Shown piece after piece: positions 1,675-45,778 of a stretch of 64,000 nucleotides of DNA. Source of the stretch: Candidatus Omnitrophota bacterium (GTDB lineage: Bacteria > Omnitrophota > Gorgyraeia > 2-01-FULL-45-10); NCBI GenBank assembly GCA_023818895.1, contig JAMWCX010000003.1, positions 219,823-283,822 of the forward strand, written 5' to 3'. The position numbers and the translations under genes were made by a program. The notes beneath the pieces were generated by a model. The model saw nothing but the letters and a program-made list of their open reading frames with translations. It searched no databases and had not been told where the DNA came from. Within the stretch, counting starts at the first letter, position 1. Every line of letters begins with the position of its first letter.

Positions 1675-2298
1675 TCATACGGCTGCCCTTTCTACCGCTT
1701 CTATAGCCTTCTCTATCTTATTCTTGGCCATCTTGCTACGGCCAACGGCATTAGTCATCTGGTCGCCTATATATATCTTTATTCGCCTTATCGCATCTTC
1801 GGCTTCTGGGATCTTTATTTTTTCAAAAAGGTTCACTCTCTGAGTCGTGGTGCGAAGCTCCTGTTTAAGTATCTCCATGCCCTGGCGCAGGACCGCTATC
1901 TCCTCCCTCAATGCCTTTATGGCACGAAGGGCTTCCAGCCCTCCGTCCACCCAGAGGGGCATAAGAAATAGATCGTATTCTGCCTTGTCAAACTCGGCCC
2001 TTTCATAGACGGGAATATCGACACCGGCTATATTCTTGAAGGTAGTGATAATCTTGGACGGCGAAAGCCACCGACGGAGATCCACTTCGGGATCAGAGAG
2101 AAGTCCGGCCCAGATTTCCGCATCACGCATCTTCTGTTTTTCGCGCAATTCCGCCGCCTCTATGAAAGAGGCCTGATGGAGTATCTCGGTCTGGAGCTGT
2201 TGTTTTTTAAGCTGAAGTGTCGGCAGATACCTCCTGTATTGGCGCAAGGCGTCTCTCTGCTTCTTCAGTTCACCCTTTGTGTATTTTATTTTTGCCAT
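1675..2298 (-). CDS. atpD: V-type ATP synthase subunit D
   Basis: 207 aa, MAKIKYTKGELKKQRDALRQYRRYLPTLQLKKQQL..., coiled-coil central stalk subunit D pattern, in operon with A/B. Confidence 0.85.
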   Translation of the reverse strand: MAKIKYTKGELKKQRDALRQYRRYLPTLQLKKQQLQTEILHQASFIEAAELREKQKMRDAEIWAGLLSDPEVDLRRWLSPSKIITTFKNIAGVDIPVYERAEFDKAEYDLFLMPLWVDGGLEALRAIKALREEIAVLRQGMEILKQELRTTTQRVNLFEKIKIPEAEDAIRRIKIYIGDQMTNAVGRSKMAKNKIEKAIEAVERAAV

Positions 2299-2314
2299 TG
2301 TGCTTATATTCTGC

Positions 2315-3625
2315 CTATGATGTTTGCGTCGTCTTCTTGGGCCAGTACTTCTCTATGAGGGATTTTTTTATGCCGGTCTCTTCCGGAAGGAAGCATTCGG
2401 CCAAGATATCCCATCCGAGATCAAGAGCCTTCTCAAGAGGAATGTTTACTTCGAGCGACATCATATGCTTTTCGAAAAGTCGACCGTACTTCAGGAGTTT
2501 TTTATCCCATGAGCTCATCTGGAAACCCATGGCCCTCTTTTCAAGTGTCTCGCGGTAATTGGCAAATAGCTGAATCATGGTGTCCATTATCGTCCTATGG
2601 TCATCCCGCGTTTTGCCGTTCACCTGCTGCTTTAGGCGGCTTAAAGAACCGAATGGCTCTATGACATGATTTTTTAGATAGAATTGACCCTCGGTGATGT
2701 AGCCGGTGTTATCCGGCACCGGATGGGTGACATCATCGCCGGGCATTGTAGTGGCCGCAAGTATCGTTATTGATCCTGCTGTGTCAAAATCGACCGCTTT
2801 TTCATATCTGGCCGCAAGCTGGCTGTAGAGGTCACCTGGATATCCCCTGTTCGAAGGTATTTGTTCCATGGTAATGGCTATCTCCTTAAGGGCATCGCAG
2901 AAGTTTGTCATATCTGTAAGTAGCACAAGGACCCGCTTCCCTTCGAGAGCGAAGGCCTCCGCAACCGCAAGGCTTATATCGGGAACCAACAGACATTCGA
3001 CTGTTGGGTCGGCCGCTGTATGCATGAAAAATATCGACCTTGGCAACGCGCCGTGTTCCTCAAGAATGTCCCTGAAAAAAAGATAGTCGTCGTGTTTGAG
3101 CCCCATGCCACCCAGGATTATGATATCCACCTCAGCCTGTATCGCTATCCTGGCAAGCAGGTTATTGTAGGGCTCGCCCGCGACGGAAAATATCGGCAAC
3201 TTTTGGGATTCCACCAGAGAATTGAACAGGTCTATCATCGGTATGCCGGTACGTATCATCTTATTGGGTATGACGCGCTTGACGGGGTTAACCGGCGGAC
3301 CTCCTATGTCGATCATGTTTTCGGATAATGCCGGCCCGTTGTCGAGAGGGGATCCGCTCCCGTTGAAGATACGTCCTAAAAGATTGGGTCCGCTTGCCAC
3401 ACGCATTGGGTGGCCCAAGAATCTCACCCTGTCGCCCGTAGAGACGCCGCGGCTTCCGGCAAATACTTGTAAAGATACGTTCTTCCCGTCAATCCTTATT
3501 ACCTGGGCAAGAGAACTGCCGCGTTGGGTCTGGATATGCGCTATCTCATTATAGCCTATGTCTTCGGCCTCGACCATGATAACGTCACCGGCTATCTGAA
3601 GGATATTTGTGTATATTTTATGCAT
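2315..3625 (-). CDS. atpB: V-type ATP synthase subunit B (regulatory)
   Basis: 436 aa, strong similarity pattern to V/A-ATPase B subunits (…[16 protein letters not shown]…, lacks a canonical P-loop), 8-nt overlap with subunit A. Confidence 0.9.
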
Positions 3626-5372
3626 TAACCTTCTCCTGTCCGGCCTTCAAATAGGCCTTGAGCTTGGTTATAACTTCTGATTCTATTGATTCGAACTCGT
3701 TCGATCCCCACCCAGCAGAGTTCCAGCCGCGGAATAACTGTCTTAAGGCCTGAAAAAACTTCAACGCATCTTCCTTATCCTTAAAATCGAACTGGGATGC
3801 TAGTATGTTGTCGTGGATAAAATGCATCATGTATTTCTGCCGCTCTTCCGATGTCGCCTCATCGACCTTGTCAAAGGCGTTCTGCTGCAGGTAGACAAAA
3901 TCAAAAAATTCGCCTTTCAGATAGTCAACGTAATCTTCCAGAGATGTGCCTTCCTCGCCTATAACCTTCATCATCTGCGCAACGTCATTGGATCTGCGCA
4001 ACGCCATGTGAGCGGCTCTGACCTCTTTCTCTTCAACGAAGCTTTTGTATTTCGACCAGCTGGTGAGAGGATCTATCGCGGGATACTTGCGCGCGTCCGA
4101 ACGCTCGCGCGAAAGCCCGTGAAACGCGCCGACGACTTTAAGAGTCGCTTGAGTGACGGGCTCCTCGAAATTGCCGCCAGCCGGGCTCACTGTTCCGCCT
4201 ATCGTGACAGAGCCGGTGGAGCCATCGTGGAATTTCACTATGCCGGCTCGCTCGTAGAATGACGCTATCCTGGACTCAAGATAAGCCGGAAACGCCTCTT
4301 CGCCGGGTATCTCCTCTAGCCTGCCGGACATCTCCCTCATGGCCTGCGCCCACCGCGAAGTGGAGTCGGCAAGCAGAAGGACATTAAGTCTCATCTGACG
4401 GTAATATTCCGCGATTGTAACGGCTGTATAGACGCTTGACTCGCGCGCCGCGACCGGCATGGAACTTGTGTTGCAGATTATGACCGTCCTGTCCATCAGG
4501 GTCCGGCCGGTCCGCGGATCTGTTATGGTCGGAAAGGTCTTGAGCGTCTCTACGACTTCTCCTGCGCGTTCGCCGCATGCGGCTATGATAACAACATCGA
4601 CGTCCGCATGACGCGATGTAAGCTGCTGTAATACCGTCTTGCCGGCGCCAAACGGGCCAGGTATGCAGTATGTTCCCCCAAGGGCAACGGGAAACAATGA
4701 ATCTATAAGACGCATTTTTGTGACAAGCGTCCTTTCGGGTTTCAGTTTCTGGGAGTAGGCGCGGATCGGTATTTTGACCGGCCAGTTTTGCTTCAAATAG
4801 ACATCATGATGCCGGCCGGACGAATCCTTAAGCCGGGCTATGGGCCTGGTGAAATCATATCTGCCGCGTTCTTCTATATGCGTTACCTCGCATTCCTCTT
4901 CGATGCTGAAAGGAACCATTATATAATGCTTGAATATCTTCTCAGGCACCACTCCAAGTTTGTCGCCGGCGCGCACACAGTCGCCTTTTTTCGCGATAGG
5001 ACTAAAATCCCATTCCATCATATCAGGCAGCGCCTTCAGATAAACGCCTCTTCTAAGGAAAAAACCGCATTCCTTAGCGAGCTGCGGCAGTGGATTCTGT
5101 AATCCGTCGAATATCTGCCCCAGCAGCCCTGGCCCAAGTTCGACCGACAGAAGCTCTTCGCTGAATTCCACCTCCTCGCCCACCTTTAAGCCGCTGGTAT
5201 TCTCGTAAACTTGCGTCTCCGCGCATTTACCCCTGACACGGATAACTTCGGCCTTTAGGCGCTCGTTTCCGTGTATGATATAGGCCACTTCGTTCTGCAC
5301 AATGAAGGAATCGGTCTCGACCTTTACCATATTGCCATTTATGGCGGTTATCCGCCCTTTTCTCTTTGACAC
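3618..5372 (-). CDS. atpA: V-type ATP synthase subunit A (catalytic)
   Basis: 584 aa with P-loop GPFGAGKTV and the non-homologous insert typical of V/A-type A subunits. Confidence 0.9.
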
Positions 5373-5391
5373 CGCATCGCTCCTTAATTAG

Positions 5392-5937
5392 CTATTTTTC
5401 AGCGCTTCCTGCCAATACCTCCTCAAGAAGGCGCTTTCCGTCCGCCGTATTTATCCTATCCCACTTTTCCAGTATCAAAAGCTTTACACCGTATATCACG
5501 AGCGCATCCATATCGAAATAGTGGCCCACGGAAAATTCATCGAGTTTGCGCCAGCGCTCAAGATCAAGTTCCTTTTCGGCTTCGAATAAAGAGGGTTTGC
5601 GATAGGCATTTATCGCTATATGCGCCGCATGCGACGATTCCGGGCGGCCATCTGGCCTTAGATACTTAGCGGGATTAACCTTTTTTCTTGAGGCCCTTAT
5701 TTCAACCAGTTCGTTCCGCACCATGGCATCAAAGGCCCGCCACTTTCTTAATGTTGGGTTCTTTATCTTGTGGGATGGTACCACCTCCGCGTTCTTAAGG
5801 CCACTTAGCGCGGAAAATTCTTCGTCGGATACCAGCGTCTTGCAGGTCGCCAGAAATTTCTCGAAACTTAAAGGCGGTTTAGCCCCGAAGGAAAGCGCCG
5901 GCAGGCTTGAGATAAGATATATGAAATAGGAAGCCAT
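5392..5937 (-). CDS. hypothetical protein conserved between atpE and atpA in Chlamydia-type V-ATPase operons (DUF2764-like)
   Basis: 181 aa; position identical to the uncharacterised ORF between E and A in chlamydial/spirochaetal V-ATPase operons; no recognisable catalytic motif. Confidence 0.4.
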   Translation of the reverse strand: MASYFIYLISSLPALSFGAKPPLSFEKFLATCKTLVSDEEFSALSGLKNAEVVPSHKIKNPTLRKWRAFDAMVRNELVEIRASRKKVNPAKYLRPDGRPESSHAAHIAINAYRKPSLFEAEKELDLERWRKLDEFSVGHYFDMDALVIYGVKLLILEKWDRINTADGKRLLEEVLAGSAEK

Positions 5938-5961
5938 TTTTGGTCTCGAATTTCCTGTTTT

Positions 5962-6567
5962 CTAGACACTCTCTTTTAGTATTTCGGCCAGATACGGGCT
6001 CAGTTGCGATGAAAGATATTCGGCTAAAGCTTTTTCGGTGAAATCGAAATATGATTTGCCGCCGTCATAGCTGATGGTAAATCCACTCCGGATACCGGAA
6101 GAGCTTTTTAGCGTTATGCCCTTTTTGGCCTCCGCACCGAGCTCGGCGAAGAGCGTCTTTTCTACCTTCTCAAGATCCTCTTTCCTTAAGGATATGACAA
6201 CCTTCTCCCTGCTGTGAGGAGAACAACCCTTTATCATCGCTATCAGCATGCCGGCAAGTTCTTCCGGCGAGAGCGTCTTGTGGATGTGCAAAGTAATTAT
6301 CCTGTCAAGCATGGCTGCTATTTCTTTTTTTAAAGATATTAGGATGTCTCGGGAGGCCTGTTTGAGTGATTCTCTTGCACTTGCCTCAATCTTGGCCGCC
6401 TTTTCCGCGGCCTCACTCAGGATGCGCCTGGCCTCCTTTTCCGCCTGCTGTATTTTCTCCTCCGCGCGGCGCCTAGCCTCTTCCTCGATTTGCTCAGCTT
6501 TAGCCTGAGCGGCTTTTATGCCTTCTTCCTGTATCTTGGCTATAAGTCCTTTTAATTCTTCCGCCAT
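5962..6567 (-). CDS. atpE: V-type ATP synthase subunit E
   Basis: 201 aa, highly charged coiled-coil N-terminus (MAEELKGLIAKIQEEGIKAAQAKAEQIEEEARRRAEEK...), first gene of the V-ATPase block. Confidence 0.75.
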   Translation of the reverse strand: MAEELKGLIAKIQEEGIKAAQAKAEQIEEEARRRAEEKIQQAEKEARRILSEAAEKAAKIEASARESLKQASRDILISLKKEIAAMLDRIITLHIHKTLSPEELAGMLIAMIKGCSPHSREKVVISLRKEDLEKVEKTLFAELGAEAKKGITLKSSSGIRSGFTISYDGGKSYFDFTEKALAEYLSSQLSPYLAEILKESV

Positions 6568-6580: not shown

Positions 6581-7150
6581 CTACTTGCGCGAGCCAGGCT
6601 TAATTACCGGCATGCCGGCCCTGCATAAGGGACAATCTTCCGATTTGTATGTTTCCACCTTTACTTTCGCCAGCGAGGCAAATTTTACTCCGAAATTAGG
6701 AGGCCTATCACTCCTGTCTATTATGCTCCCGACGCCAGCTATGATGCCGCCGCATGTTTTCACTACCTCTATGACCTCATTTGTAGACTTTCCGGTAGTA
6801 ACAACGTCCTCTACCACAAGGGTCCTCTCTCCTTCAGAGATAGAGAAGCCGCGCCTCAGCATCATAATACCTTCTTCTCTCTCGGTAAAGATACCCCTTA
6901 CACCCAGAGATCTCGCAACCTCGTAAGCGAGCGTCACGCCCCCTAAGGCGGGTCCGACGACCAGGTCTATCTTTTCCCCCACGAACCTTGCGACAAGCGC
7001 TTTCGCTAATTTTTCCGCTATATAGGGATATTGCAAAACGAGCGCGCATTGCAGATACTTTTCACTGTGTAGCCCGCTCGAAAGCTTAAAATGCCCTTTG
7101 AGGAGGGCCTTGTTCTTCTCAAAAAGATCCAATACGTCTTTTTCCGTCAT
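6581..7150 (-). CDS. pyrE: orotate phosphoribosyltransferase
   Basis: 189 aa, PRTase motif VVEDVVTTGKS, N-terminal HFKLSSGLHSEKY typical of PyrE. Confidence 0.85.
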   Translation of the reverse strand: MTEKDVLDLFEKNKALLKGHFKLSSGLHSEKYLQCALVLQYPYIAEKLAKALVARFVGEKIDLVVGPALGGVTLAYEVARSLGVRGIFTEREEGIMMLRRGFSISEGERTLVVEDVVTTGKSTNEVIEVVKTCGGIIAGVGSIIDRSDRPPNFGVKFASLAKVKVETYKSEDCPLCRAGMPVIKPGSRK

Positions 7151-7860
7151 TGCCCAATCTCTTTCAGGATGCGTCTTGCCGCCCCTGCCGGGTCCGGAGC
7201 TTCTATGACAGGCCTACCCACCACTATGAAACTGGCCCCATCGCGTATCGCGTCCGCCGGCGTGGCTATCCTTTTCTGATCCTGAGCCTCTGTCCACGTC
7301 GGCCGCACTCCCGGCGTCACTATAATAAAATCTTTACCAAGCTTTTGCCTGATGAGCGCGGTCTCTTTTGGCGATGCCACAACACCATCTAAACCCGCGT
7401 CCTTCGCCAATACGGCAAGGCGCAACACTTCTCGGTTTATATTATCATCTATACCGACTTTCTTCAACGCCTTTTCATCCATGCTGGTAAGAATGGTGAC
7501 GGCTATAAGTTTAGGTTTTTCTATCTTCATTCTTTGCGCCTCAATCATCACGCTTTCTGAGGCTTTTTTCATCATCTCATACCCGCCAAGAGCATGGACA
7601 TTGACCATAAAAACACCAAGCCTTGTAGCCGAAAGCACTGCCTTTGAAACGGTATTCGGTATATCATGAAATTTCAGGTCGAGAAAAACTTTAACGCCGT
7701 TCTTTATAACCGCCTCCACAACGGACGGCCCACACGATGAGAAGAGCTCAGAACCTATTTTGACTGCGACAACCTCGCCCTTCAGCTTGTCACAGAGGTC
7801 CAGTGCCTTCTTTTGTGTATCAACGTCTAACGCAACTATAAGTCTATTCTTCGGCCCCAT
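7147..7860 (-). CDS. pyrF: orotidine-5'-phosphate decarboxylase
   Basis: 237 aa, LIVALDV…KIG…FLDLKFHDIPNTV motif set of OMP decarboxylase. Confidence 0.85.
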   Translation of the reverse strand: MGPKNRLIVALDVDTQKKALDLCDKLKGEVVAVKIGSELFSSCGPSVVEAVIKNGVKVFLDLKFHDIPNTVSKAVLSATRLGVFMVNVHALGGYEMMKKASESVMIEAQRMKIEKPKLIAVTILTSMDEKALKKVGIDDNINREVLRLAVLAKDAGLDGVVASPKETALIRQKLGKDFIIVTPGVRPTWTEAQDQKRIATPADAIRDGASFIVVGRPVIEAPDPAGAARRILKEIGQ

Positions 7861-7867
7861 ACGTCCT

Positions 7868-8782
7868 TTATCCCATCTTTAAAGATCCGATGAGTGATTT
7901 TATATTCTTGATGCCTCGCTTTTTCATATATATTTCCAGTCCTTTGACAATCTCGGCTGGCGTCTGGGGGTTCACAAAGTTGGCTGTCCCTACCTGAACG
8001 GCACTTGCCCCGCAGAGCATAAACTCCACAGCATCCGAGGCATTCATTATACCGCCTATTCCTATTATTGGCACTGAAGTCTTCTTGGCCGCCTCCCAAA
8101 CGGCTCTCAAAGAAAGGGGTTTTATCGCCGGGCCGCTCAAGCCGCCTGTGACATTACCAAGTTTCGGTTTCCACGTATCTACATCAACCGCCATGGCGAT
8201 AAAGGTATTGGCGACTGAAAGGGCATCTGCACCCGCGGCTTCCGCGGCTTTCGCTATCTTGCCGATATCGGTAACGTTAGGGGACAATTTGACTATAACA
8301 GTAAGGTCTGTAGCGGCCCGGACAGCCTTTACAACCCGGTAGGTCGCTTTTTCATCTTGCGCTATAAGGCCTTCGCTGAGGCCGTATTTGATATTCGGGC
8401 AGGAGAGGTTAACTTCCAAAGCGTTTACTCTTGCGAACCTCGAAAGCGAGCGGGCGAGCCTGCTGAATTGTTTTTCGTCGTCACCTGCTATGCTTACGAC
8501 AATCGGCGCCTCCAAGCCGCTCATGGCCGGCAGCTTATTTCTTATGAAATCTTCAACCCCTTTGTTCTCAAGCCCTATTGAATTGAGCATGCCGGACGCT
8601 GTTTCAGCAATCCTTGGGGGCAGATTACCTGAACGCTCCTCCAGCGTTATGGTCTTGAGAACTACGGCGCCAATCAAATCTGTCTCGGTAAGTTCGTCGT
8701 ATTCTATGCCCCATGTGCCCGACGCCACCATCACAGGGTTTTTTAGTCTCAGCTTTCCAATCTTTACCGATAGATCTACCAC
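7868..8782 (-). CDS. pyrD: dihydroorotate dehydrogenase, catalytic subunit (class 1B)
   Basis: 304 aa, NPVMVASGTWG…LEVNLSCPN…GIGGI motifs; paired with pyrK. Confidence 0.9.
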   Translation of the reverse strand: MVDLSVKIGKLRLKNPVMVASGTWGIEYDELTETDLIGAVVLKTITLEERSGNLPPRIAETASGMLNSIGLENKGVEDFIRNKLPAMSGLEAPIVVSIAGDDEKQFSRLARSLSRFARVNALEVNLSCPNIKYGLSEGLIAQDEKATYRVVKAVRAATDLTVIVKLSPNVTDIGKIAKAAEAAGADALSVANTFIAMAVDVDTWKPKLGNVTGGLSGPAIKPLSLRAVWEAAKKTSVPIIGIGGIMNASDAVEFMLCGASAVQVGTANFVNPQTPAEIVKGLEIYMKKRGIKNIKSLIGSLKMG

Positions 8783-9633
8783 ACTATATCCTCCGCGTTA
8801 AAAACAGGGCCGTCTTTGCAGACCATTTTGTATAGAACTGCGGACGGCGCGGTTGTAACATCAGATTTTATCCTGACAGGACAGCCAAGACAAACACCGA
8901 TACCGCAGGCCATTCGTTCTTCGAGCGAAACCTGGCATGGCATACGCCCGGCCTTCGCTATGTCAGCAACCGCTTTAAGCATAGCGGTTGGGCCGCAGGC
9001 GTAGATGGCAGCCCTTTCAGCGAGCCTTCGAGCGAAGAGTAAATTTTTTAAAATATCTGTTGCCAGGCCCTTTTTCCCCTTGGAGCCGTCTTCGGTCGCC
9101 ACCAAAACCTCACATCCCAATAAACGGAATTCTTTTTCACAAAGTACGTGTGCCCTCGTTTTTGCCCCGATAATAACGACTATGTTTTTCTTTCGGTGCG
9201 ACATTCTATCAGCGCCTTTATTTATTCGCTCCGCCAGGGCAAGAAGTGGCGCAACCCCTATTCCGCCTGCCACGAGCAGCGCGTCGCCTTCTTCTGAAAC
9301 GGTGAAACCTTTGCCGAGGGGGCCTATGATATCGACATCCTCGCCGGCCCGTTTGGCGGAAAGGAGAGATGTCCCTTTGCCGACAACCTCGTAAAGCATC
9401 TCTATTCCGCCTTGCCATATTCTGTGCGCGCCGAGCGGCCTGCGTAGCAGAGGCTCTGTAGATAACGAACATCTTACCTCAAAAAATTGCCCGGGACTAG
9501 TCTGGCTGCCAAAATAGTCGGAGGCAACCCGCATCCTGTAGAACCCCTCGGCCACCTTTTCGTTTTTTAGTATCTTGACCTTTTGTTGTTTCATTTTCTT
9601 ACAGGTCCTATAAAAGATTCTCCTGTTTCTCAA
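8776..9633 (-). CDS. pyrK: dihydroorotate dehydrogenase electron-transfer subunit
   Basis: 285 aa, FAD/NAD-binding fold plus C-terminal CGIGVCLGCPV iron-sulfur motif; overlaps pyrD by 7 nt. Confidence 0.8.
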   Translation of the reverse strand: MRNRRIFYRTCKKMKQQKVKILKNEKVAEGFYRMRVASDYFGSQTSPGQFFEVRCSLSTEPLLRRPLGAHRIWQGGIEMLYEVVGKGTSLLSAKRAGEDVDIIGPLGKGFTVSEEGDALLVAGGIGVAPLLALAERINKGADRMSHRKKNIVVIIGAKTRAHVLCEKEFRLLGCEVLVATEDGSKGKKGLATDILKNLLFARRLAERAAIYACGPTAMLKAVADIAKAGRMPCQVSLEERMACGIGVCLGCPVRIKSDVTTAPSAVLYKMVCKDGPVFNAEDIVW

Positions 9634-10840
9634 AACTTAAGTCAAAGGCGCACAATACCTTCACCTTGCCATACTTACCGTCGTAGCCAGGCTCTATCTT
9701 GACGTTACCGTTGCGCACATTCATTATGCCCTCTGCTACTCTAGTGGGGCAGTTGTGGTAAAGATCATCCTCGGAGGCGTATAAAAGGGCATTCATCTCA
9801 TTTTTCAGATTCTTGATGATCCTCATATACTCCTTCTGCACGGCTAGTGAATCGGCTGATCTGCCTAATGCATTGGCCACTATCTCGGCAAGGGGAACAA
9901 CCTTTCTAAACGAAGGCCTGGCCTTAGGAACAAAACCCGCTTTTCTGTCAGCCAGCTCTTCGACGCGATGCATAACTCCTATGGTTACCTTCTTGCCGCA
10001 AACGGGGCACATATTGTTATTTCTGGAAGACTCCGCCGGCGAAAGGGCCACACCGCATAGCCGGTGGCCATCCCAGTGGTACTTTCCCTCCTCAGGAAAG
10101 AACTCTATGGTATAGAGAAATCTCTCGTCATTCTTACGCCTCAATATTTCGCAAAGGGCGGGATAATCTATCTTTTCCTTGAAAACATTAGCCTCTCTGC
10201 CTATCTTAGATGGCGAATGGGCATCTGAGTTGGACATCAGTGTGAAGCGGTCCAGGCTCGACCATCGCCAGTTCATCTCGGGATCGCTTGAAAGACCTGT
10301 TTCTATCGATAATATTTTAGGCGTCTGATCCTCAAAACATTCCTCGGCCGAATCGAAACCGGATCTCGAACCGAATATGCTGAAGTGCGGAGTCCAAGCG
10401 TGACTGGGAACGCATAATATATTTTCGTCTATGGCCGAAAGAAGCTTAACCATTCTGTCGCATTCAAGATTCAGCACCGGTCTTCCGTCTGAAGAAAGAT
10501 CACCGTATTCTGAAAGAAGACTGTTGATCTCGGCAGCGGTATTGAGATCGGGAGCGAAAATTATATTGTGCACTTTTCGTGTCCTGCCGGCCTTGAAATA
10601 TATGTTGGAGACCTCCGCTGTCAGCACAAAATATATGCCGTCGCGCCGATAGACCCCGCGCTCAGGACCTTCAAGCGAGGACTTAAGCTCCGCAAACCAG
10701 CTCGGGTGGGTAAAATCGCCGGTGCCAAGCATCGCGATGCCTTTAGCCGCCGCCCATTTCGTCAGGGAGGAAATATCCATGTCGTTTGACGTCGCTCGCG
10801 AATATCTTGAATGTATGTGGAAATCGGCGATGAAGCTCAT
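9608..10840 (-). CDS. PHP-domain metal-dependent phosphoesterase with C-terminal Zn-ribbon (COG1379/TIGR00375-like)
   Basis: 410 aa, N-terminal ADFHIHSRYSRATS PHP signature, internal CPVCGKK zinc ribbon; overlaps pyrK by 26 nt and the upstream Mut7-C gene by 4 nt. Confidence 0.6.
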   Translation of the reverse strand: MSFIADFHIHSRYSRATSNDMDISSLTKWAAAKGIAMLGTGDFTHPSWFAELKSSLEGPERGVYRRDGIYFVLTAEVSNIYFKAGRTRKVHNIIFAPDLNTAAEINSLLSEYGDLSSDGRPVLNLECDRMVKLLSAIDENILCVPSHAWTPHFSIFGSRSGFDSAEECFEDQTPKILSIETGLSSDPEMNWRWSSLDRFTLMSNSDAHSPSKIGREANVFKEKIDYPALCEILRRKNDERFLYTIEFFPEEGKYHWDGHRLCGVALSPAESSRNNNMCPVCGKKVTIGVMHRVEELADRKAGFVPKARPSFRKVVPLAEIVANALGRSADSLAVQKEYMRIIKNLKNEMNALLYASEDDLYHNCPTRVAEGIMNVRNGNVKIEPGYDGKYGKVKVLCAFDLSFEKQENLL

Positions 10841-11340
10841 GGGCTATTCTTTGGTTGTTCGCCATCTGGCCGATGCGCGCGCTCAGCAGGTAAGCCGACA
10901 AGATTGTCAAGAAACTGATTTACCAGCATCCAGTGTGTTCCGCGCCAGTACACCTTGTCGCATTTCAGACATTTCATAAAAGAGTCTTGAGTATCAAAAA
11001 CATATTCGGGGACCGATCCTTTTACCGATATCTTCTCAACGCTCTCCAATATCTCATTACAAAGAACGCACCTGCTAAACAATGACCTTCTGTCTATATT
11101 AATATCGAGTTCCCGTATAATCTGCTCGAGCTGTTTCTCGACAAAATCGCTTGAGACCCTGATCATTCTCGTTCCGCTAAAACGCGACATCTTCGAGTCG
11201 CGCGTAAGTATTATCCTATCCTCCCTCAAGCTCTGTAGTACGACAGCCGCGCTGTCCTTCTCGAGAACAGTATCAAATCCGAGTATGCGCAGCCACGTAA
11301 CGAGTCTTCCAAGTTCTGCGGTGACTATAAAACGCACCAC
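10837..11340 (-). CDS. Mut7-C RNase-domain (DUF82/COG1656, PIN-like) protein with C-terminal CxxC…CxxC zinc ribbon
   Basis: 167 aa, MVRFIVTAELGRLVTWLRILGFDT… plus CVLCN…CLKCDKVYW; family assignment from memory of the Mut7-C domain pattern. Confidence 0.5.
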   Translation of the reverse strand: MVRFIVTAELGRLVTWLRILGFDTVLEKDSAAVVLQSLREDRIILTRDSKMSRFSGTRMIRVSSDFVEKQLEQIIRELDINIDRRSLFSRCVLCNEILESVEKISVKGSVPEYVFDTQDSFMKCLKCDKVYWRGTHWMLVNQFLDNLVGLPAERAHRPDGEQPKNSP

Positions 11341-11382: not shown

Positions 11383-12672
11383 TCATACCATTATTTCTTC
11401 ATCCTTCATCGCCAGGACACCGCCCACAAAGACATCTATAGCCTTGCCTTTAAGACGCCATCCTATAAAAGGCGAATTTTTTGATTTCGACTCGACCAAT
11501 TCCTTTGTATAAACGTATTCCTTTTCCGGGTCTATCACCGTTATGTCCGCGGGCGATCCCTTTTTCAAGCTGCCGCCACAGCAACCCAGTATCTTGGCTG
11601 GATTGGTCGACAATTTCATGACGAGATCCGGCCAGGAGAGGACGCCCTTGTCCAGAAGCTCCATCACACACAGTGATAGCGCCGTCTCAAAACCTATTAT
11701 TCCGAAAGGCGCAAAATCAAATTCGACATCTTTTTCAGCATCCGTGTGCGGCGCATGGTCCGTGGCTATTACATCTATAGTACCATCGGCAAGGGCCTCC
11801 TTTATGAACTCAACATCCGCTTTTGTCCTCAAGGGTGGGTTCATCTTTGTGTTCGTGTCATAAGATACACAGCAGTCTTCGGTAAGACTGAAATAATGAG
11901 GCGCTGTTTCGGCTGTGACCGGCAGGCGCGCCTTTTTCGCCTTGCGTATCAACTCAATCGATTTGGCGCAGCTTACATGGGCTATATGAATTTTCGCGCG
12001 CGCTTTTTTAGCAAGCTCTATATCTCTTTTAACGAAGGTGCTTTCCGCCTCCGCAGGTATGCCGCGCAACCCCATCTTCGTTGAGATGAACCCTTTGTTC
12101 ATGACGCCACCGGCCGACATCTTTGGGTCTTCACAATGATCTATTACTAAAAGGCCGCTTTTTCTGGCGGCCCTAAGCGCTTGAAGCATGATAGAGGCCT
12201 TTTCCACCGATGAGCCGTCATCCGAGACAGCCACCACCCCCTCTTTTTTCATCCCGGAAAACGCCGCGACCTTCCTGCCAGTCCGCTTCAAAGTAATGGC
12301 GCCGACCATCGCAACATGGCATGCTGCGTCCCGTTTTATGATGCCGCTGAGCTTTCTCACCATCTCTGGGCTATCTATGGGCGGTTCCGTATTGGGCATA
12401 CAGGCTATCGTAGTGAATCCGCCGCGCAGGGCGGCGCGTGTACCCGTAGCTATCGTCTCCTCATCCTCCCTGCCTGGTTCCCTAAGATGAGAGTGCATAT
12501 CCACAAGGCCGGGTATGACGATCTTCCCTTTGGCGTTGATTTCGGTATCGCACTTTTCGTTAAGGTCTTTTGCAACCTTAGCTATTCTGTTTCCGTCAAT
12601 CAATATGTCGCTGGTATCATCGATCTTAGATACCGGATCTACCACCCTGCCGCCCTTTATAAGGTATCTCAC
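11383..12672 (-). CDS. pyrC: dihydroorotase
   Basis: 429 aa, VDMHSHLREPG metal-binding signature of cyclic amidohydrolases, in pyr operon. Confidence 0.85.
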   Translation of the reverse strand: MRYLIKGGRVVDPVSKIDDTSDILIDGNRIAKVAKDLNEKCDTEINAKGKIVIPGLVDMHSHLREPGREDEETIATGTRAALRGGFTTIACMPNTEPPIDSPEMVRKLSGIIKRDAACHVAMVGAITLKRTGRKVAAFSGMKKEGVVAVSDDGSSVEKASIMLQALRAARKSGLLVIDHCEDPKMSAGGVMNKGFISTKMGLRGIPAEAESTFVKRDIELAKKARAKIHIAHVSCAKSIELIRKAKKARLPVTAETAPHYFSLTEDCCVSYDTNTKMNPPLRTKADVEFIKEALADGTIDVIATDHAPHTDAEKDVEFDFAPFGIIGFETALSLCVMELLDKGVLSWPDLVMKLSTNPAKILGCCGGSLKKGSPADITVIDPEKEYVYTKELVESKSKNSPFIGWRLKGKAIDVFVGGVLAMKDEEIMV

Positions 12673-12714: not shown

Positions 12715-14409
<1,695 letters not shown>

Positions 14410-15516
14410 TCAACCCTTTTTGCTGCCCGCCCTCGTTCTCGAGCGCTCAACTACATCCCAAATCAGATACGCCATCTTCGGCGCGGTGACATTGATAGAA
14501 TAGACTGCCTCGGCCTTTCTGCGACCTGCTTTGCCCATTCTCTGGCGTAAAGCGACATCGTCTCTAAGCATTGATAGGGCGCGTGCCCAAGCCGTATTGT
14601 CAGACGCCAAAAATCCGTTTACTCCCTCCTCAACGATTTCCGCGTTTACGCCGATCGGCGAAACAACTACCGGAAGGCCGCAGGCCATATATTGGATTGT
14701 CTTAAGCCCGCACTTGCCTCTCTCCCATAGACCATTATGCAGAGGCATTATGCCAACATCGCAGGATTCAAGATCCGTCACTTCGCTTGGTTCTGACCAT
14801 GGCCTTGTCTCCACCGGCACCCCTGTAAGCTCAACTTTGCCCGCGCCTATCAAAACTACCTTGGCGCGCCCTCCATCGCAGACCTCCTTAAGCGCCGGCG
14901 ATATCTCAGTAAGATATTTAGTGGTCGACGGGGACCCTATCCAGCCTATTGTGAAAATCCTATTTGCGGCGGGCCGCCTGATAGGGTAACGCTTCAGGTC
15001 GACGGCGGTAGGAATTACTTCGACCCTCGAAGAACCGGAGTTCAATGCGTATTCGGCCAGAAAATTATTTCCCGCTATCACTAGGTCAGCCTGCCTCATA
15101 ACAATGTCGATCTTTCTGCCGAGAACTCGGCGAACAAAGCGGTTTTGATGCTGGCTGTATCTGTAAAAGACGGCGTCGTCATAATTTGCTATATAGGGGA
15201 TGCCCAGTGCGTTTAGCATATTTTCAAATACCGGAGGGGAAAATGGCAGTATTTCATATTCCACGATCACAACATCATATTTGCGCGCTCCACTGATGGC
15301 CCAAAGCCTTCTTGCAAGCGCCTTGGCATAGTCTAGGACGCTTCCTCTCTTCATAGAATAAAGATGGTTTAGATAGCGGGAGTCGGTAAGCGGTGAAAAG
15401 TCACATCTTATGCCCTGCGACTCAAGATATGGAAAATACTGTAGAAAGCGGTACCTACTTGAGGCGCCCTCACGCGAGTATTTGGTAAGAAATAACGCCT
15501 TTATCGTCTCTTTCAT
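14410..15516 (-). CDS. glycosyltransferase family 4 (GT1-type, RfaB-like)
   Basis: 368 aa, C-terminal EX7E-like region and overall GT-B fold pattern (…GWIGSPSTTKYL…LKTIQYMACGLPVVVS…). Confidence 0.6.
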   Translation of the reverse strand: MKETIKALFLTKYSREGASSRYRFLQYFPYLESQGIRCDFSPLTDSRYLNHLYSMKRGSVLDYAKALARRLWAISGARKYDVVIVEYEILPFSPPVFENMLNALGIPYIANYDDAVFYRYSQHQNRFVRRVLGRKIDIVMRQADLVIAGNNFLAEYALNSGSSRVEVIPTAVDLKRYPIRRPAANRIFTIGWIGSPSTTKYLTEISPALKEVCDGGRAKVVLIGAGKVELTGVPVETRPWSEPSEVTDLESCDVGIMPLHNGLWERGKCGLKTIQYMACGLPVVVSPIGVNAEIVEEGVNGFLASDNTAWARALSMLRDDVALRQRMGKAGRRKAEAVYSINVTAPKMAYLIWDVVERSRTRAGSKKG

Positions 15517-19236: not shown

Positions 19237-19314
19237 TGGCGTCCCCAACCGGATTTGAACCGGTGTTCTCAGAATGAAAATCTGATGTCCTGGACCGGAC
19301 TAGACGATGGGGAC
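19237..19314 (-). tRNA. tRNA-Glu (anticodon UUC)
   Basis: Reverse complement GTCCCCATCGTCTAGTCCGGTCCAGGACATCAGATTTTCATTCTGAGAACACCGGTTCAAATCCGGTTGGGGACGCCA folds as a cloverleaf with anticodon loop UUUUCAU, T-loop TTCAAAT and an encoded CCA. Confidence 0.8.
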
Positions 19315-19387: not shown

Positions 19388-21979
19388 TTACTTCATCGGG
19401 TGTTTTTTTCCAGCCTTTTCTTTCGGGGCCGTCTTCTTTTTACTCTCTTCCTTCGTTTCCTTAGCAGGCTCCGCCTTCGGCTCGGTTTTTAGCGAAGTAG
19501 CCGGGCCAGCGTTTGTTCCGACGGTAGGGGCTTCTCCCGCCGCCTTATCTTCCTCTTCCTCCGGCACGATTTTGGCAACTGACGCAACCCTGTCGCCGGG
19601 ATCAAGTCTCATTAGACGAACCCCCTGTGTAGAGCGGCCGGTTGTCCTTATATCCTTTACTGGCGAACGGACTATCATGCCCTTTTCCGTTATGAGCATG
19701 AGTTCGTCTTTATCGGAGACGGCGTTAAGGCCGACTGCCTCACCGTTTTTACCGGTCACTTTTATATTGATAATGCCTTTGCCGCCGCGGGATTGCAACC
19801 TATATTCTTTGAAATCTGTGCGCTTGCCGAAGCCTTGGGCTGTTACCGTAAGAACGGTCTGTTCTGGCTTCACAACTTCCATGCCGATCACAGAATCCTT
19901 CTTCCCCAGCCCTATGCCCCGCACACCTTTTGCAGCCCTGCCCATTTCCCGGACTTGCGACTCCTTGAAACGGATCGCCTTCCCTTCCTTTGTAGCTATA
20001 AGGATCTCCTGATTGCCATCCGTCATTTTTACATCAATAAGCTCATCGCCGGGTTCGAGGCCTATTCCTATTATGCCGCCCTTGCGAGGATTTGAATAAG
20101 CGCTAAGCGCCGTCTTTTTGACAAGACCGGCTTTGGTTACCATCATAAGGAAGTAGCCCTCCTTAAATTCCCTCACCGGTACGAAAGCGCTTATCTTTTC
20201 GCCGCTTGCGAGCGAAAGAAGATTGACTATCGCCTTTCCTTTGGATGTCCTGCCGGCCTCTGGTATTTCATGGACCTTGAGCCAGTGGACATTTCCTTTG
20301 TCGGTGAAGAAAAGCATGTAGTCATGGGTGGAGGCGATGAAAAGATGTTCGACAAAATCCTCATCCTTTATCTCCGCTCCCGTGACGCCCTTGCCGCCGC
20401 GGCGCTGCTTGCGATAACTTGAGACTGGAAGCCTCTTGATATATCCTCCATGGCTCATAGTTATCACGACATCTTCTTCTGCTATCAGATCCTCTATCTC
20501 TAACTCTTCCGCTTCCGGTGCTATCTCGGTCCGGCGTTCATCACCGAATTTTTCGGCGAGTTCCCTGGTCTCCTGTTTTATTATTTCAAGCACCTTCTTT
20601 TCGCTGGCGAGTATCGACTTATAATATTCTATCTTCTTTATGAGCTCGAGATACTCTTTATCTATTTTGTCGCGCTCCAGACCCGTCAGTCGCTGAAGTT
20701 GCATCTCAAGGATCGCCTGCGCCTGCCTGTCGGAAAGCTCAAATTTTTTCATGAGCTCTTCTTTGGCAACCTGCGGATCCTTAGATTCTTTTATTATCTT
20801 GATGACCCTGTCGAGATTCTTTAAAGCCACTTTAAGCCCTTCGAGTATGTGGGCCCTTTCGAGAGCTTTATCCAGGTCGAAGCGCGTCCTGCGAATCACC
20901 ACATCCTTACGATGGCGGATAAATTCTTCTATAACTTCTTTCAGGTTGAGGACCTTCGGCCTTCCGTCAACGAGCGCTAGCATTATAACCCCGAAGGTCA
21001 CCTGCATTTGGGTGTGCTTGTAGAGCTGGTTCAGAACGACTCTCGCTATCGTGCCCCTGCGAAGCTCTATGACGATCCTCATACCATCCTTATCGGATTC
21101 GTCGCGCAGGTCTGTAATTCCGTCGATCTTCTTCTCCTGGACAAGATTGGCTATCGACTCAATAAGGTTGGCCTTGTTGACCATGTAGGGTATCTCTTTT
21201 ATGATGATGGCCTCTTTGCCGCTCTTCTGTTCCTCTATATACGCCTTGGCATGTATCTTTAAAAGGCCCCTGCCCGTCGTGTAGGCCCTGCGGATGCCCT
21301 CAAGCCCCCTAACGATGCCGCCCGTTGGGAAGTCGGGCCCTTTTATCTTTCTTATGAGCGCGCTTATGTCACAATCTGGCTCATCGATGACATGCGTAAT
21401 GGCCTCAGCGACTTCCTTCAAGTTGTGCGGCGGAATATTCGTGGCCATCCCGACCGCTATGCCGCTGGAGCCGTTAACAAGAAGATTGGGCAGGCATGAA
21501 GGAAGCACCTTCGGCTCCTCAAGAGACCCGTCGAAATTCGGCGTAAAATCAACGGTGTTTTTGTCTATATCAAGGAGCATCCAATCTGTAATGTGCTCAA
21601 GGCGCGCCTCTGTATACCTCATAGCGGCAGGTGCATCGCCGTCGATAGAACCGAAGTTGCCTTGACCGTCCACAAGGGGATATCGCAGGCTGAAATCCTG
21701 CGCCATCCTGACAAGCGTATCGTACACGGCAACATCGCCGTGGGGGTGGTATTTACCAAGCACCTCTCCGACGATACGAGCGCTCTTTTTATAGGGCTTG
21801 TTATGCTCTACTCCGAGCTCCCGCATAGCGTAGAGGACCCTCCTGTGAACAGGTTTCAGTCCGTCACGAATATCTGGGAGCGCCCTACCCACTATTACGC
21901 TCATTGCGTAATTTATATAGGAGTCCTTCATCTCCTCTTCGATGTATACTGGTAACACCTTTTCATTTAACGCGTACAT
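19388..21979 (-). CDS. gyrA: DNA gyrase subunit A
   Basis: 863 aa, active-site AMRYTEARL, GyrA box and six beta-pinwheel blades, with a Lys/Glu-rich C-terminal tail. Confidence 0.95.
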
Positions 21980-21987
21980 GTCTCTCC

Positions 21988-24594
<2,607 letters not shown>

Positions 24595-24978
24595 TCATTT
24601 AATATTACCGATTCTGAACCGCACGTCTTTTATCTTTTTGTTTGGGATGGCTTTCTCTAGCTTGTTAAGTATCTCTTTTTTCCTCATCGTCAGCTCATAA
24701 AGCCAGCTGGAGCTATCCACACTGACCGTTATAACCGCCTTCTTGAGCGTGGTCGGCTTGGAATGTTTGGCGGCGTCATCACCAGCCGCCCGACGCCAAG
24801 CCTCGTCGATCTCTTCGGCACTAACCCGTTCTCCCCCGCTTAGGTTTTTTATCACTTTCCCCAGAATCTCTGAGAGCGGATTTTTGGAAGCGGTGTTTTC
24901 AACTGGGCTGCCTTGGCATAACCACATATACGTATTCATCGCCAATCCTGACCACGCCCGGTTTTGCCGGATCAACAA
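24595..24978 (-). CDS. DUF721 (DciA-like) protein; true start probably internal or non-ATG near 24900-24940
   Basis: 127 aa ORF; LSEILGKVIKNL…W…A…V…S.L.L pattern typical of the DUF721 proteins found after dnaN/recF. As drawn the ORF overlaps the dnaN 3' end by 80 nt, so the N-terminus is over-called. Confidence 0.5.
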   Translation of the reverse strand: MLIRQNRAWSGLAMNTYMWLCQGSPVENTASKNPLSEILGKVIKNLSGGERVSAEEIDEAWRRAAGDDAAKHSKPTTLKKAVITVSVDSSSWLYELTMRKKEILNKLEKAIPNKKIKDVRFRIGNIK

Positions 24979-25999
24979 GCTCCATGTATATGTTTTCTTC
25001 GTCTATGTTTTTTAAAAGATTGATAAGGTAATCCGGGTTGAAACCTATTGAGATATCTTTACCCTTATACTGGGCCTCAAGCTCAACTCTTGCCTCCCCC
25101 ATATGGGGGTCGTTTTTAGAAAGTGTTATTTTGTCGCGTGAGACATCTATTTTTACAAACATCGAGTCATGGCTCGTAAAAAGCGCTGTCCTCTTTATCG
25201 CTGCCAATAGTGGCGCTCTTGCTACAACAATCTTTTCTTTGGCTTCTTCAGGTATAACCTTTTCGTAGTTTGGGAACTCTCCTTCGATCAGTCTTGAGAT
25301 AAGTTTTTTACTGCCTTTATCGAACGATACTTGTTTTTCAGCCAGAAACAACTTGATTTCCTCTTCGCTATCCGCAAGCATCCTGTCTAATTCGTCGACT
25401 GCTTTGGCTGGTAGGATGAACTTCGTTTCCGCTGTCTTTGGTAGCTGTATCTTGTCTTCTGTGACCGCAAGACATCTGCCGTCGGTTGCCGCCAACCTAA
25501 GGTAGGTAGGTTTTATTACAAAAAGTATGCCGTTCAACACATGGCGTATCTCATCATGTCCTATCGCGAAGCTTGTCCTGCGTAGCATAGTCTTTAGTTT
25601 GTTTTGTTTTAAGGTAATGTTGTTTTTGTCTTTGAATTCCGGCGGTTTTGAAAACTCCTCTTCTGGCAGGCCCATTATTTTAAATAGGCTTTTCCCGCAT
25701 TCTATGCTAACAAGATTATTTTTTTTCACAGACACGGATATCGTTTCGTTGTCTGGAAGCTCTTTTACTATTTCCAAGATCTTTTTTGCGGGTATTGTTA
25801 TCGCGCCGGTCATGATCGGTTTTATAGGGAGTATAGATACTATGCCGATATTGAAATCTGTGGCTGTTAACACAATGTTATCGTTTTTTGATTCGATTAA
25901 TATATGTGACAGAATTGGTTGAACGGCTTTTGGGTCTATAACTGTTTGAACTCCTTGAATTCCTTTTAATAAAACCTCTTTGGTGGAAGTAAATCTCAT
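24899..25999 (-). CDS. dnaN: DNA polymerase III beta sliding clamp
   Basis: 366 aa, three-domain clamp pattern, immediately downstream of dnaA. Confidence 0.9.
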   Translation of the reverse strand: MRFTSTKEVLLKGIQGVQTVIDPKAVQPILSHILIESKNDNIVLTATDFNIGIVSILPIKPIMTGAITIPAKKILEIVKELPDNETISVSVKKNNLVSIECGKSLFKIMGLPEEEFSKPPEFKDKNNITLKQNKLKTMLRRTSFAIGHDEIRHVLNGILFVIKPTYLRLAATDGRCLAVTEDKIQLPKTAETKFILPAKAVDELDRMLADSEEEIKLFLAEKQVSFDKGSKKLISRLIEGEFPNYEKVIPEEAKEKIVVARAPLLAAIKRTALFTSHDSMFVKIDVSRDKITLSKNDPHMGEARVELEAQYKGKDISIGFNPDYLINLLKNIDEENIYMELVDPAKPGVVRIGDEYVYVVMPRQPS

Positions 26000-26159
26000 T
26001 TTAAATCCTTTTCTTTTAATTTATTAGATTAGCCAGTAAAAGCATACGTAAAGGTTGTTGATAAGTTAGTAGTTTTTTAACCGAAACAAAATCAAATATT
26101 TACGGAAAAACAAATCCAAAACACAAAACAAAAAATATCCACAACACCAACAAAACGCC
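26000..26159. other. dnaA-dnaN intergenic AT-rich region with DnaA-box-like 9-mers (ATATCCACA 26135-26143; TGTTGATAA 26056-26064); possible second half of a bipartite oriC
   Basis: Two 8/9 matches to TTATCCACA (one in each orientation) and an A/T-rich CAAAACACAAAACAAAAAATAT run, seen directly in the sequence. Confidence 0.4.
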
Positions 26160-27545: not shown

Positions 27546-27911
27546 TTATCCACAATAGTTCGGAGCAAATTCAAGGGAAATTCGGAGGTTATTCACAAGT
27601 TGTTCACAAGCCAAAATTGCCAAAATAGACGATATCACGCGCTATTATATTAAAATATGCTTTAGATTGCAAGAGAAAACATCCCTTGTAACAAAAAAGA
27701 AGGGTTTGATTTTGTCGCACAATAGAATTGCGTAAAAAGGTTATATAACAAAAGGCCTCCAAAGAGGTTAGTGAAAGGTAGTCAAAGACCTTAATCAAAA
27801 GGCGCAGCGATATTATTGTTGTAGATAAAAATTATACTAGACCGGGTAAATAATATTGACTCAACCTTTCTTTATGTTATAATCTACAACGCGAATTTTT
27901 AAAGGAGCGTT
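27546..27911. other. oriC / divergent dnaA-rpmH control region: DnaA boxes TTATCCACA (27546-27554), TTATTCACA (27589-27597), TTGTTCACA (27600-27608), TGTAGATAA (27820-27828) and an AT-rich putative DUE (~27640-27900)
   Basis: One perfect consensus DnaA box plus three 7-8/9 boxes within 366 nt between dnaA and rpmH. The window shows a complete gene-strand switch at this locus, and the surrounding gene order is the canonical one for an origin. Confidence 0.7.
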
Positions 27912-28049
27912 ATGAAATATACACTAAAACCCGGATCAAACATTAAGCGGAAGCGCACGCACGGTTTCCGAAAAAGGATGAAAAGCCGCTGGGGGCGCCA
28001 GGTTCTTTCAAGGCGCAGAAAAAAGGGCCGTCATAAACTGACTGTGTAA
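27912..28049 (+). CDS. rpmH: 50S ribosomal protein L34
   Basis: 45 aa [45 protein letters not shown], a textbook L34; too short for the ORF track. Confidence 0.85.
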
Positions 28050-28114
28050 TTGCCGTCGGCATATCAGAAAGGCCGCGCCCGGCAAAAGAGGCGCGGAAGG
28101 AAAGGTCTGGCAGG

Positions 28115-28677: not shown

Positions 28678-28686
28678 CAGGACGAT

Positions 28687-36119: not shown

Positions 36120-36261
36120 TCTTACTTCGCCCCTAGAAGATGTTCAGGGCTAAATACAATAGGTCTTGCTGGGCAGATCCGATTTGGGAAGGTAGAAATA
36201 TAGACTTTGGAAGGATTTTCCCTACGAAGTAACGCGTTGTTTGATAATGGAATGCGTAGCG

Positions 36262-45766: not shown

Positions 45767-45778
45767 ATACACGCAAGT

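Follow-up and report, generated by a model that had tools for sequence, protein, structure and literature searches.

A bacterial Endonuclease Q homolog and an EndoQ-linked Mut7-C protein encoded within a pyrimidine operon of Omnitrophota

We analyzed a 64,000-nucleotide stretch of a Candidatus Omnitrophota genome (GenBank assembly GCA_023818895.1, contig JAMWCX010000003.1, positions 219,823 to 283,822; hereafter the window), in which two open reading frames (ORFs) of 410 and 167 amino acids (aa) are embedded in an operon for pyrimidine biosynthesis (pyr). On the minus strand the gene row reads pyrR, pyrB, pyrC, 167-aa ORF, 410-aa ORF, pyrK, pyrD, pyrF and pyrE, confirming the placement between pyrC and pyrK reported in a first-pass annotation of the same DNA. 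Judging by sequence comparison, the 410-aa protein is an Endonuclease Q (EndoQ), an assignment that we make with high confidence for its identity and good confidence for its activity, and the 167-aa protein is a Mut7-C family protein of a subfamily linked to EndoQ. Taken together, it appears reasonably probable that the window encodes a bacterial EndoQ and a dispensable, nucleic-acid-binding Mut7-C accessory protein, both transcribed with a PyrR-attenuated pyr operon.

Identification of the 410-aa protein relied on searches of the Protein Data Bank (PDB) and NCBIfam, not on Pfam, where the PHP model itself gave no match and only a sub-threshold PHP_C hit was seen. Using phmmer against the PDB, residues 5-395 matched the crystal structures of PfuEndoQ (5zb8 and 7k30-7k33) at E = 1e-50, with the 5zb8_A match (E = 1.1e-50) pairing query residues 5-395 with chain residues 5-382. 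The NCBIfam model TIGR00375 was aligned end to end (residues 5-393 to model positions 2-374 of 374), and the identical protein at NCBI, from a Candidatus Omnitrophica metagenome-assembled genome (MAG), carries the name 'endonuclease Q family protein'. At ~33% identity to PfuEndoQ (PF1551), the window protein has the same three-domain architecture as known EndoQ enzymes, which also include TkoEndoQ (TK0887) and those of M. acetivorans and Bacillus pumilus. EndoQ cuts the phosphodiester bond immediately 5' of deoxyuridine (dU), deoxyinosine (dI), deoxyxanthosine (dX) and apurinic/apyrimidinic (AP) sites (PMC4357722), and the B. pumilus enzyme shares the activity of the archaeal one (PMC6202378). 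The first-pass annotation had seen in it a PHP phosphoesterase with a nucleotide- or RNA-processing role; its family assignment holds, but TIGR00375 is EndoQ, a family of known structure and established DNA-nicking activity, and not a phosphoesterase without function for which free nucleotides would be the likely substrate.

All metal ligands and nearly all pocket residues of EndoQ are matched in the window protein. The PfuEndoQ ligands H8, H10, E76, H84, H139, D193 and H195, established by crystal structure and mutagenesis (PMC5961232), map to window residues H8, H10, E76, H91, H147, D206 and H208, all of which are invariant in our alignment A1. For the PfuEndoQ lesion pocket, comprising H139, T142, E167, L168, G169, L170, N191 and D193 (PMC5961232), the window counterparts are H147, T150, E180, G182, L183, N204 and D206, with Thr181 in place of L168. 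The zinc motif lies at the same place in both proteins, with H259, C262, C278 and C281 as candidate ligands in the window and C249, C252, C268 and C271 as the ligands in PfuEndoQ; C278 and C281 belong to the sequence MCPVCGKK, whose CPVCGKK portion the earlier annotation had rightly pointed out. His259 was also found in all seven Omnitrophota-type homologs of alignment A1, and a C3H zinc site in the window protein is plausible.

Comparative data came from three independent lines that agree with one another, namely lookups of individual homologs (L001-L004 and L006-L008, described below) and two surveys, which were anchored on EndoQ and on Mut7-C and not on pyr genes: a scan of GTDB species genomes, in which at least 571 EndoQ relatives were confirmed among 600 pattern matches and the best 80 were examined, and a scan of metagenomes, in which the best 80 Mut7-C loci were examined. 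By label, the best 80 EndoQ homologs were bacterial save for one Micrarchaeota. A C-terminal Qxx[LF]F (for example, QLSFF, QLSLF or QMKLF) is carried by approximately 70 of the 80 EndoQ ORFs and by almost all of the 120 close homologs, with bacterial examples across many phyla, and we take this tail to fit the beta-clamp-binding consensus QL[SD]LF. The sliding-clamp peptide at the extreme C terminus would be a PIP box in archaeal EndoQ, through which PfuEndoQ binds PCNA (PMC5961232), and Qxx[LF]F in the bacterial relatives, which this tail probably anchors to the beta sliding clamp. Retention of the zinc and C-terminal helical domains, together with the clamp-type tail of its relatives, points to DNA and not free nucleotides as the substrate of the window protein. 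Two over-long EndoQ ORFs, L105:3147-5468 (773 aa) and L108:1242-3722 (826 aa), were considered as possible fusions to a partner domain, which was ruled out: the insertions are inteins, matching LAGLIDADG_3 in the former and Hint_2 and Intein_splicing in the latter.

The 167-aa ORF matched Pfam Mut7-C (PF01927) over the whole model (E = 1.3e-40, above the gathering score) and contains a Cys4 zinc ribbon (C91xxC94 and C124xxC127), so that both the family and the CxxC pairs noted in the first-pass annotation stand. Its labeling there as a nuclease or RNase is doubtful. Mut7-C is classed with the PIN-like superfamily, to which the FEN nucleases also belong, and within Mut7-C only the first active-site position is conserved (PMC5499597); in the window protein this position, an Asp after strand 1 in PIN-type active sites, is Thr7, and the protein also has E9, D23, D48 and D65. 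We compared 42 EndoQ-adjacent Mut7-C copies with 46 solitary ones from the same scan. Position 7 was Thr or Ser in every EndoQ-adjacent copy, and [T/S]xE at positions 7-9 was present in 42 of 42 compared to 0 of 46 solitary copies, of which 41 carried the canonical D7. The TRD-motif Asp (D48) was present in 4 of 42 adjacent copies compared to 42 of 46 solitary ones, being mostly Asn in the adjacent subfamily; the window protein has Asp there. Relative to generic Mut7-C, the EndoQ-linked type is thus marked by exchange of the strand-1 Asp for Thr or Ser, with a Glu two residues on, and by a TRD Asp that is usually Asn; Glu9 and Asp23 are invariant within it, position 65 is mostly Asp or Glu, and it keeps the zinc ribbon along with the majority of the conserved basic residues. 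The [T/S]xE type was seen nowhere but immediately upstream of EndoQ; generic Mut7-C proteins, in contrast, are solitary or fused to other domains: among the 10 longest generic representatives scanned, 7 (P0273, P0289, P0311, P0324, P0332, P0344 and P0363) carry an N-terminal fusion to the RNA-binding THUMP domain, and in the remaining 3 the fusion partner is an NTPase_1, PCMT or HD domain.

The top structural match of the window Mut7-C protein was 8q66_A, the C-terminal domain of C. elegans MUT-7, and the Cys4 ribbon and the GxLxxWLRxxGxD, TR, Q70, N95 and YWxGxH motifs of the MUT7-C family are present; no PIN match in Foldseek was significant (best E = 0.14), and a PDB sequence search returned no match. 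A 2024 structural study, the sole experimental work on MUT7-C, found that the structure did not significantly resemble PIN domains, described the prokaryotic minimal form as TOPRIM-like in fold and bearing a zinc finger, and assigned the domain to RNA binding, with no nuclease activity reported and no earlier functional assignment (PMC11347159). With moderate confidence, we regard the window protein as a dedicated, dispensable and probably non-catalytic nucleic-acid-binding accessory, not as a PIN-type RNase, and for the EndoQ-linked members 'Mut7-C RNAse' is probably a misnomer in the databases.

The position of EndoQ within pyr genes recurs among relatives. In 21 of the 80 species genomes pyrC lay immediately upstream of EndoQ, and pyr-linked EndoQ genes fell almost entirely into one clade of a neighbor-joining tree, with labels that are mostly Omnitrophota and in some cases 'uncultured Planctomycetia'. 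Three related loci (L001-L003) have the order pyrR-pyrB-pyrC-EndoQ-pyrK-pyrD-pyrF-pyrE without Mut7-C, L004 has the same order plus Mut7-C, and the divergent loci L006-L008 have pyrR-pyrB-pyrC-Mut7C-EndoQ followed by flavodoxin-like, SLOG/LOG-like, carA, carB, YjbQ, PEMT-like and Fpg genes. The pyrC-EndoQ junction persists down to ~50% EndoQ identity with downstream gene content reshuffled. No pyr neighbors of EndoQ were found in Nitrospirota-, Thermodesulfobacteriota- or Patescibacteria-labeled loci among the best 80, and in contrast to the window-type gene, which is fixed in a PyrR-attenuated pyr operon and often accompanied by Mut7-C, the neighborhoods of T. kodakarensis EndoQ and its P. 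abyssi homolog were devoid of both Mut7-C and pyr genes. What is conserved is the presence of EndoQ within the pyr operon, and Mut7-C is frequently absent. Small ORFs between pyrC and EndoQ in L021, L034 and L039 were evaluated as divergent Mut7-C genes and rejected, being TPR-like, LolA-like or unmatched. Five 'uncultured Planctomycetia' MAGs (L010, L011, L013, L038 and L039) have an Omnitrophota-type pyr-EndoQ locus and an EndoQ that groups with Omnitrophota, and these submitter labels may be wrong. In five loci of a separate, non-pyr EndoQ lineage (L020:4916-5407, L031, L035, L081 and L083), the gene immediately upstream of EndoQ encodes a HIT-family hydrolase.

Mut7-C was followed immediately by EndoQ in 34 of the 80 metagenome loci, including all of the top 30, with the other 46 copies solitary, and pyrC lay upstream of the Mut7-C-EndoQ pair in all 30 metagenome loci that had upstream DNA. 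The most frequent junctions were a 4-nt overlap between pyrC and Mut7-C and a 1-nt overlap between Mut7-C and EndoQ. Loci with and without Mut7-C interleave within the pyr-linked EndoQ clade, and pairwise distances of the two proteins were correlated (r = 0.85; Mantel test, 0 of 2000), indicating that Mut7-C and EndoQ were inherited together and that Mut7-C was lost repeatedly. In the EndoQ-anchored sample, which is unbiased in this respect, Mut7-C was seen only in L027 and in L052, with no pyrRBC detected upstream in the latter. The first-pass annotation had allowed for the two ORFs proving to be unrelated to the named families or randomly placed with respect to pyr genes; instead, the families hold and the pair, or more constantly the EndoQ gene alone, follows pyrR-pyrB-pyrC in many related genomes. 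Because the arrangement recurs in dozens of independent genomes, it is not due to chance.

A PyrR-binding leader precedes pyrR in the window (Table 1). It matched Rfam RF00515 in a local search with 46.1 bits (E = 2e-5), under the gathering score of 54; at gathering thresholds the PyrR leader was missed in the window and in 7 of 8 relatives, with L018 attaining the score. Leaders were recovered instead by local E-value search and a motif count, which found the PyrR-binding hairpin motif in 33 of 33 distinct pyrR leaders of related loci (0 in 50 shuffles per leader), followed by a T-run in 29 of 33. Leaders of related loci likewise show TTGACA/TATAAT pairs similar to the window promoter. From these features we predict that PyrR attenuation controls EndoQ and Mut7-C, with derepression at low UMP/UTP.

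In Bacillus, the pyr genes are ordered pyrR-(pyrP)-pyrB-pyrC-pyrAA-pyrAB-pyrK-pyrD-pyrF-pyrE and are controlled by three attenuators. The window shares this biosynthetic gene order, with pyrR first and a leader in which a PyrR-binding hairpin precedes a terminator, but has one detected attenuator, no pyrP, no carAB and an embedded EndoQ (with Fpg also embedded in relatives). Gaps between its genes are at most 42 nt, which is the distance between pyrC and Mut7-C, or are replaced by overlaps. Of the two overlaps in the first-pass annotation, the 4-nt ATGA stop/start overlap between Mut7-C and EndoQ can be read in the sequence, and the 26-nt overlap of EndoQ with pyrK is doubtful: it requires a TTG start at 9633, and since NCBIfam pyrK models align to the long ORF only from residues 13-14 onward, translation more likely starts with the ATG at 9594, giving a 13-nt spacer. 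NCBI places the Mut7-C start one codon later (166 aa). Within the operon, a terminator search returned one weak minus-strand match (12799-12781, 3 GC pairs), with total matches not above shuffles; together with the short gaps and overlaps, this lends indirect support to the predicted co-transcription of EndoQ and Mut7-C with the pyr genes. No compositional anomaly was found across the operon. The position of pyrE is the same in L001-L004, L010, L012, L017 and L018.

Table 1 Features of the pyr-EndoQ locus, in window coordinates
Feature	Coordinates	Strand	Basis or remark
Sigma-70-type promoter, TTGACA-17-TATAAT	14385..14413	-	Consensus scan, 12/12 matches; upstream of pyrR
PyrR-binding leader RNA: predicted binding hairpin CCUUUUAAGACCGGUCCUGCGAGUCCGGAAAAGG, then terminator hairpin and U7 run	14272..14366	-	Rfam RF00515
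pyrR, PRTase-type regulator	13676..14230	-	Pfam Pribosyltran E = 9e-23, UPRTase weak; first gene behind attenuator
pyrB, aspartate carbamoyltransferase	12715..13686	-	OTCace_N and OTCace
pyrC, dihydroorotase	11383..12672	-	TIGR00857, 423 bits, exceeds cut-off
Mut7-C family Zn-ribbon protein, EndoQ-linked [T/S]xE subfamily, 167 aa	10837..11340	-	Pfam Mut7-C; likely start at second GTG, 11337
Endonuclease Q homolog, 410 aa: PHP catalytic, Zn and C-terminal helical domains; tail EKQENLL	9608..10840	-	phmmer to 5zb8/7k30
pyrK, electron-transfer subunit of dihydroorotate dehydrogenase B	8776..9594	-	DHODB_Fe-S_bind and NAD_binding_1
pyrD, dihydroorotate dehydrogenase	7868..8782	-	DHO_dh E = 1e-72
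pyrF, OMP decarboxylase	7147..7860	-	OMPdecase E = 1e-60
pyrE, orotate phosphoribosyltransferase	6581..7150	-	Pribosyltran

The first-pass annotation had described the two ORFs as occupying the position of carAB, a description that proved misleading. No carB-sized ORF was found within the 64-kb window, and in the clusters of relatives carB (14 loci) and carA (6 loci) both lie downstream of EndoQ, indicating that EndoQ is an insertion after pyrC and no substitute for carAB; the lineage of the window has a trimmed pyr operon, with carAB putatively elsewhere. In 8 loci the same cluster also harbors a second base-repair gene, fpg/mutM (formamidopyrimidine-DNA glycosylase), which lies downstream of EndoQ and carB in L008, L015, L016, L019, L032 (12197-12997), L041 and L045. 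Other genes recurring in relatives' pyr clusters are SLOG cluster-4 (LOG-like; 12 loci), flavodoxin-like (6), PEMT/ICMT-like membrane methyltransferase (8) and YjbQ/UPF0047 (4) genes, with example coordinates L016:11227-11718, L041:11239-11724, L006:15607-16182 and L052:16650-17039. A tRNA gene stands just downstream of EndoQ within the extended cluster in L006 (10262-10333), L008 (10404-10475) and L015 (11311-11382), which suggests a core transcription unit pyrR-pyrB-pyrC-(Mut7C)-EndoQ in these relatives.

Beyond pyrE, V-type ATPase subunits are encoded among the ORFs at 1675-6567 on the minus strand, starting 13 nt past pyrE, and in L004 such genes also follow pyrE, with one short uncharacterized ORF between; given these ORFs, the transcription unit may run on past the pyr genes. 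The origin region lies at 19388-30279, with gyrA, gyrB, dnaN (24899-25999) and dnaA (26160-27545) on the minus strand, whereas yidC (28687-30279) is encoded on the plus strand. The change in gene orientation and the lowest cumulative GC skew are both found near 27.5-28.7 kb, and the 26-32 kb interval has a reduced GC content of 0.40-0.42. The pyr/EndoQ operon is 13-21 kb from the dnaA/oriC region and co-directional with replication. The window also contains a 6S RNA (43088-43247, plus strand, 72.4 bits), a TPP riboswitch (45771-45883, plus strand, 61.9 bits) and tRNA genes at 36045-36708 and 19240-19314.

We propose that EndoQ, as a zinc-dependent PHP-fold enzyme, would flip a deaminated or missing base (dU, dI, dX or AP) into the pocket beside its two-metal site and would then nick the strand immediately 5' of the lesion, with the C-terminal Qxx[LF]F tail tethering the bacterial enzyme to the beta sliding clamp. 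Mut7-C would aid EndoQ in substrate targeting or hand-over without an RNase role, and a single promoter and PyrR attenuator would drive both genes, with expression rising at low UMP/UTP. We infer that EndoQ is enzymatically active in the source organism, that the two proteins are physical partners, that clamp binding occurs and that the coupling to pyr genes has a selective reason, the rationale for which may be that disturbed pyrimidine pools lead to more uracil incorporation. In a bolder form, which we consider unlikely, Omnitrophota would run a metabolically gated base-repair regulon, in which a single UMP/UTP-sensing PyrR attenuator raises EndoQ, and in many lineages Fpg, as pyrimidine pools fall, a state in which dUTP/dTTP and hence uracil incorporation would increase, and in which Mut7-C is a hitherto unrecognized subunit of EndoQ; if true, this two-component EndoQ system would provide the first function for a stand-alone prokaryotic Mut7-C protein.

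Several observations weigh against the combination of a bacterial EndoQ, an accessory Mut7-C protein and PyrR attenuation. Unlike PfuEndoQ, the window protein has an HxxC...CxxC zinc site instead of C4, its first ligand being His in place of Cys, and has His152 in place of the proposed wedge residue W144 (PMC5961232). Its TIGR00375 score (195 bits) is under the equivalog cut-off of 326.6, and its degenerate tail, QENLL, which retains only the Gln and a hydrophobic pair, is the sole deviant among the 120 close homologs. The RF00515 match in the window lies under the Rfam gathering score. Mut7-C was present in just 1 of the 21 EndoQ-in-pyr loci of the EndoQ-anchored sample, so any partnership must be non-essential, and its invariant Glu9 could be a relocated catalytic residue. 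Outside the pyr-linked clade EndoQ occurs without pyr linkage, and unrelated genes (PEMT-like and LolA-like) sit in relatives' pyr clusters as well, so that the placement of EndoQ could be historical and not adaptive.

As to why the genes sit in the pyr operon, such historical hitch-hiking is a serious rival that we hold to be a distinct possibility, if short of probable. EndoQ, with or without Mut7-C, would have been inserted after pyrC in the ancestor of the clade and would have stayed for convenient, growth-linked and origin-proximal expression, without functional coupling. This would fit with the lack of pyr neighbors in the Nitrospirota-, Thermodesulfobacteriota- and Patescibacteria-labeled loci and in Thermococcales, with the apparently unrelated flavodoxin-like, PEMT-like, LolA-like, TPR and tRNA genes in relatives' clusters, with the L052 pair and with the proximity of the operon to the origin, but less well with the conservation of the pyrC-EndoQ junction despite downstream reshuffling, the presence of fpg in the same cluster of 8 loci, or the overlapping codons that join the genes behind a conserved attenuator. 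A different division of labor, in which EndoQ nicks 5' of the lesion and a PIN-like Mut7-C nuclease removes the damaged nucleotide or flap, as Fen1 or a 5'-3' exonuclease would, strikes us as rather doubtful. The superfamily shared with FEN nucleases (PMC5499597), the proposal of Fen1 or a 5'-3' exonuclease as the step after EndoQ (PMC4357722), the acidic residues kept at positions 9, 23 and 65, the tight coupling and co-evolution of the genes and the adjacency of a Haloferax Mut7-C to the PHP-containing PolX (PMC5499597) all speak for it; yet the strand-1 Asp is Thr or Ser in 42 of 42 EndoQ-linked copies and the TRD Asp is mostly Asn, neither nuclease activity nor significant PIN similarity has been reported for MUT7-C (PMC11347159), Foldseek gave no significant PIN match, and repeated losses of Mut7-C have left EndoQ in place.

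Much less probable is the idea, put forward in the first-pass annotation, that the pair works on free nucleotides or RNA and so supplies or monitors UMP synthesis through salvage or quality control. PHP-fold proteins do include nucleotide phosphoesterases, the closest non-EndoQ structure cited for PfuEndoQ binds AMP (PMC5961232), generic Mut7-C is often fused to THUMP and a LOG-like SLOG gene occurs in relatives' clusters. Against this, all three EndoQ domains align, including the DNA-binding zinc and helical domains, the base-flipping pocket is kept, bacterial homologs bear a sliding-clamp-type tail, and EndoQ-linked Mut7-C has no THUMP fusion and is unlike generic Mut7-C at the catalytic positions. 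A mobile or defense-type cassette with a toxin-like nuclease, lodged in the operon, is scarcely credible: the Mut7-C-like groups COG4634, PIN_10 and PIN_16 are predicted toxins (PMC5499597) and some EndoQ genes contain inteins, but neither protein matches PADLOC models at E <= 0.01, composition is even across the operon, the pair is vertically inherited and evolves in parallel, and no antitoxin-like partner, repeats or integrase adjoin it.

With EndoQ and its putative Mut7-C accessory protein as our preferred reading, the window can be set beside known repair systems. In alternative excision repair by EndoV, the Mth212 ExoIII dU endonuclease or UVDE, as with EndoQ, repair starts by a lesion-adjacent nick and not by a glycosylase (PMC4357722); EndoQ differs from these enzymes in its PHP fold and in nicking immediately 5' of the lesion. 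Both families were known already and both proteins are named in NCBI. Literature searches, with incomplete coverage, found no description of a linkage of EndoQ to pyr genes or to Mut7-C. Three features appear to be undescribed: the fixation of EndoQ in a PyrR-controlled operon across an Omnitrophota clade, the exclusive, co-evolving [T/S]xE Mut7-C subfamily and the presence of a clamp-type tail on nearly all bacterial EndoQ proteins.

Published accounts treat EndoQ as an archaeal enzyme with representatives in only a few bacterial groups (PMC4357722 and PMC6202378). Its occurrence in at least 571 species-representative genomes would make it a broadly used bacterial route for removal of uracil and hypoxanthine. 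Mesophilic EndoQ variants may prove useful, PfuEndoQ being already a reagent in APOBEC deamination assays. The EndoQ-linked subfamily would offer a first handle on a prokaryotic Mut7-C domain without assigned function (PMC11347159), and an EndoQ gene behind a pyrimidine-sensing attenuator would present a testable case of DNA repair tied to the status of the nucleotide pool.

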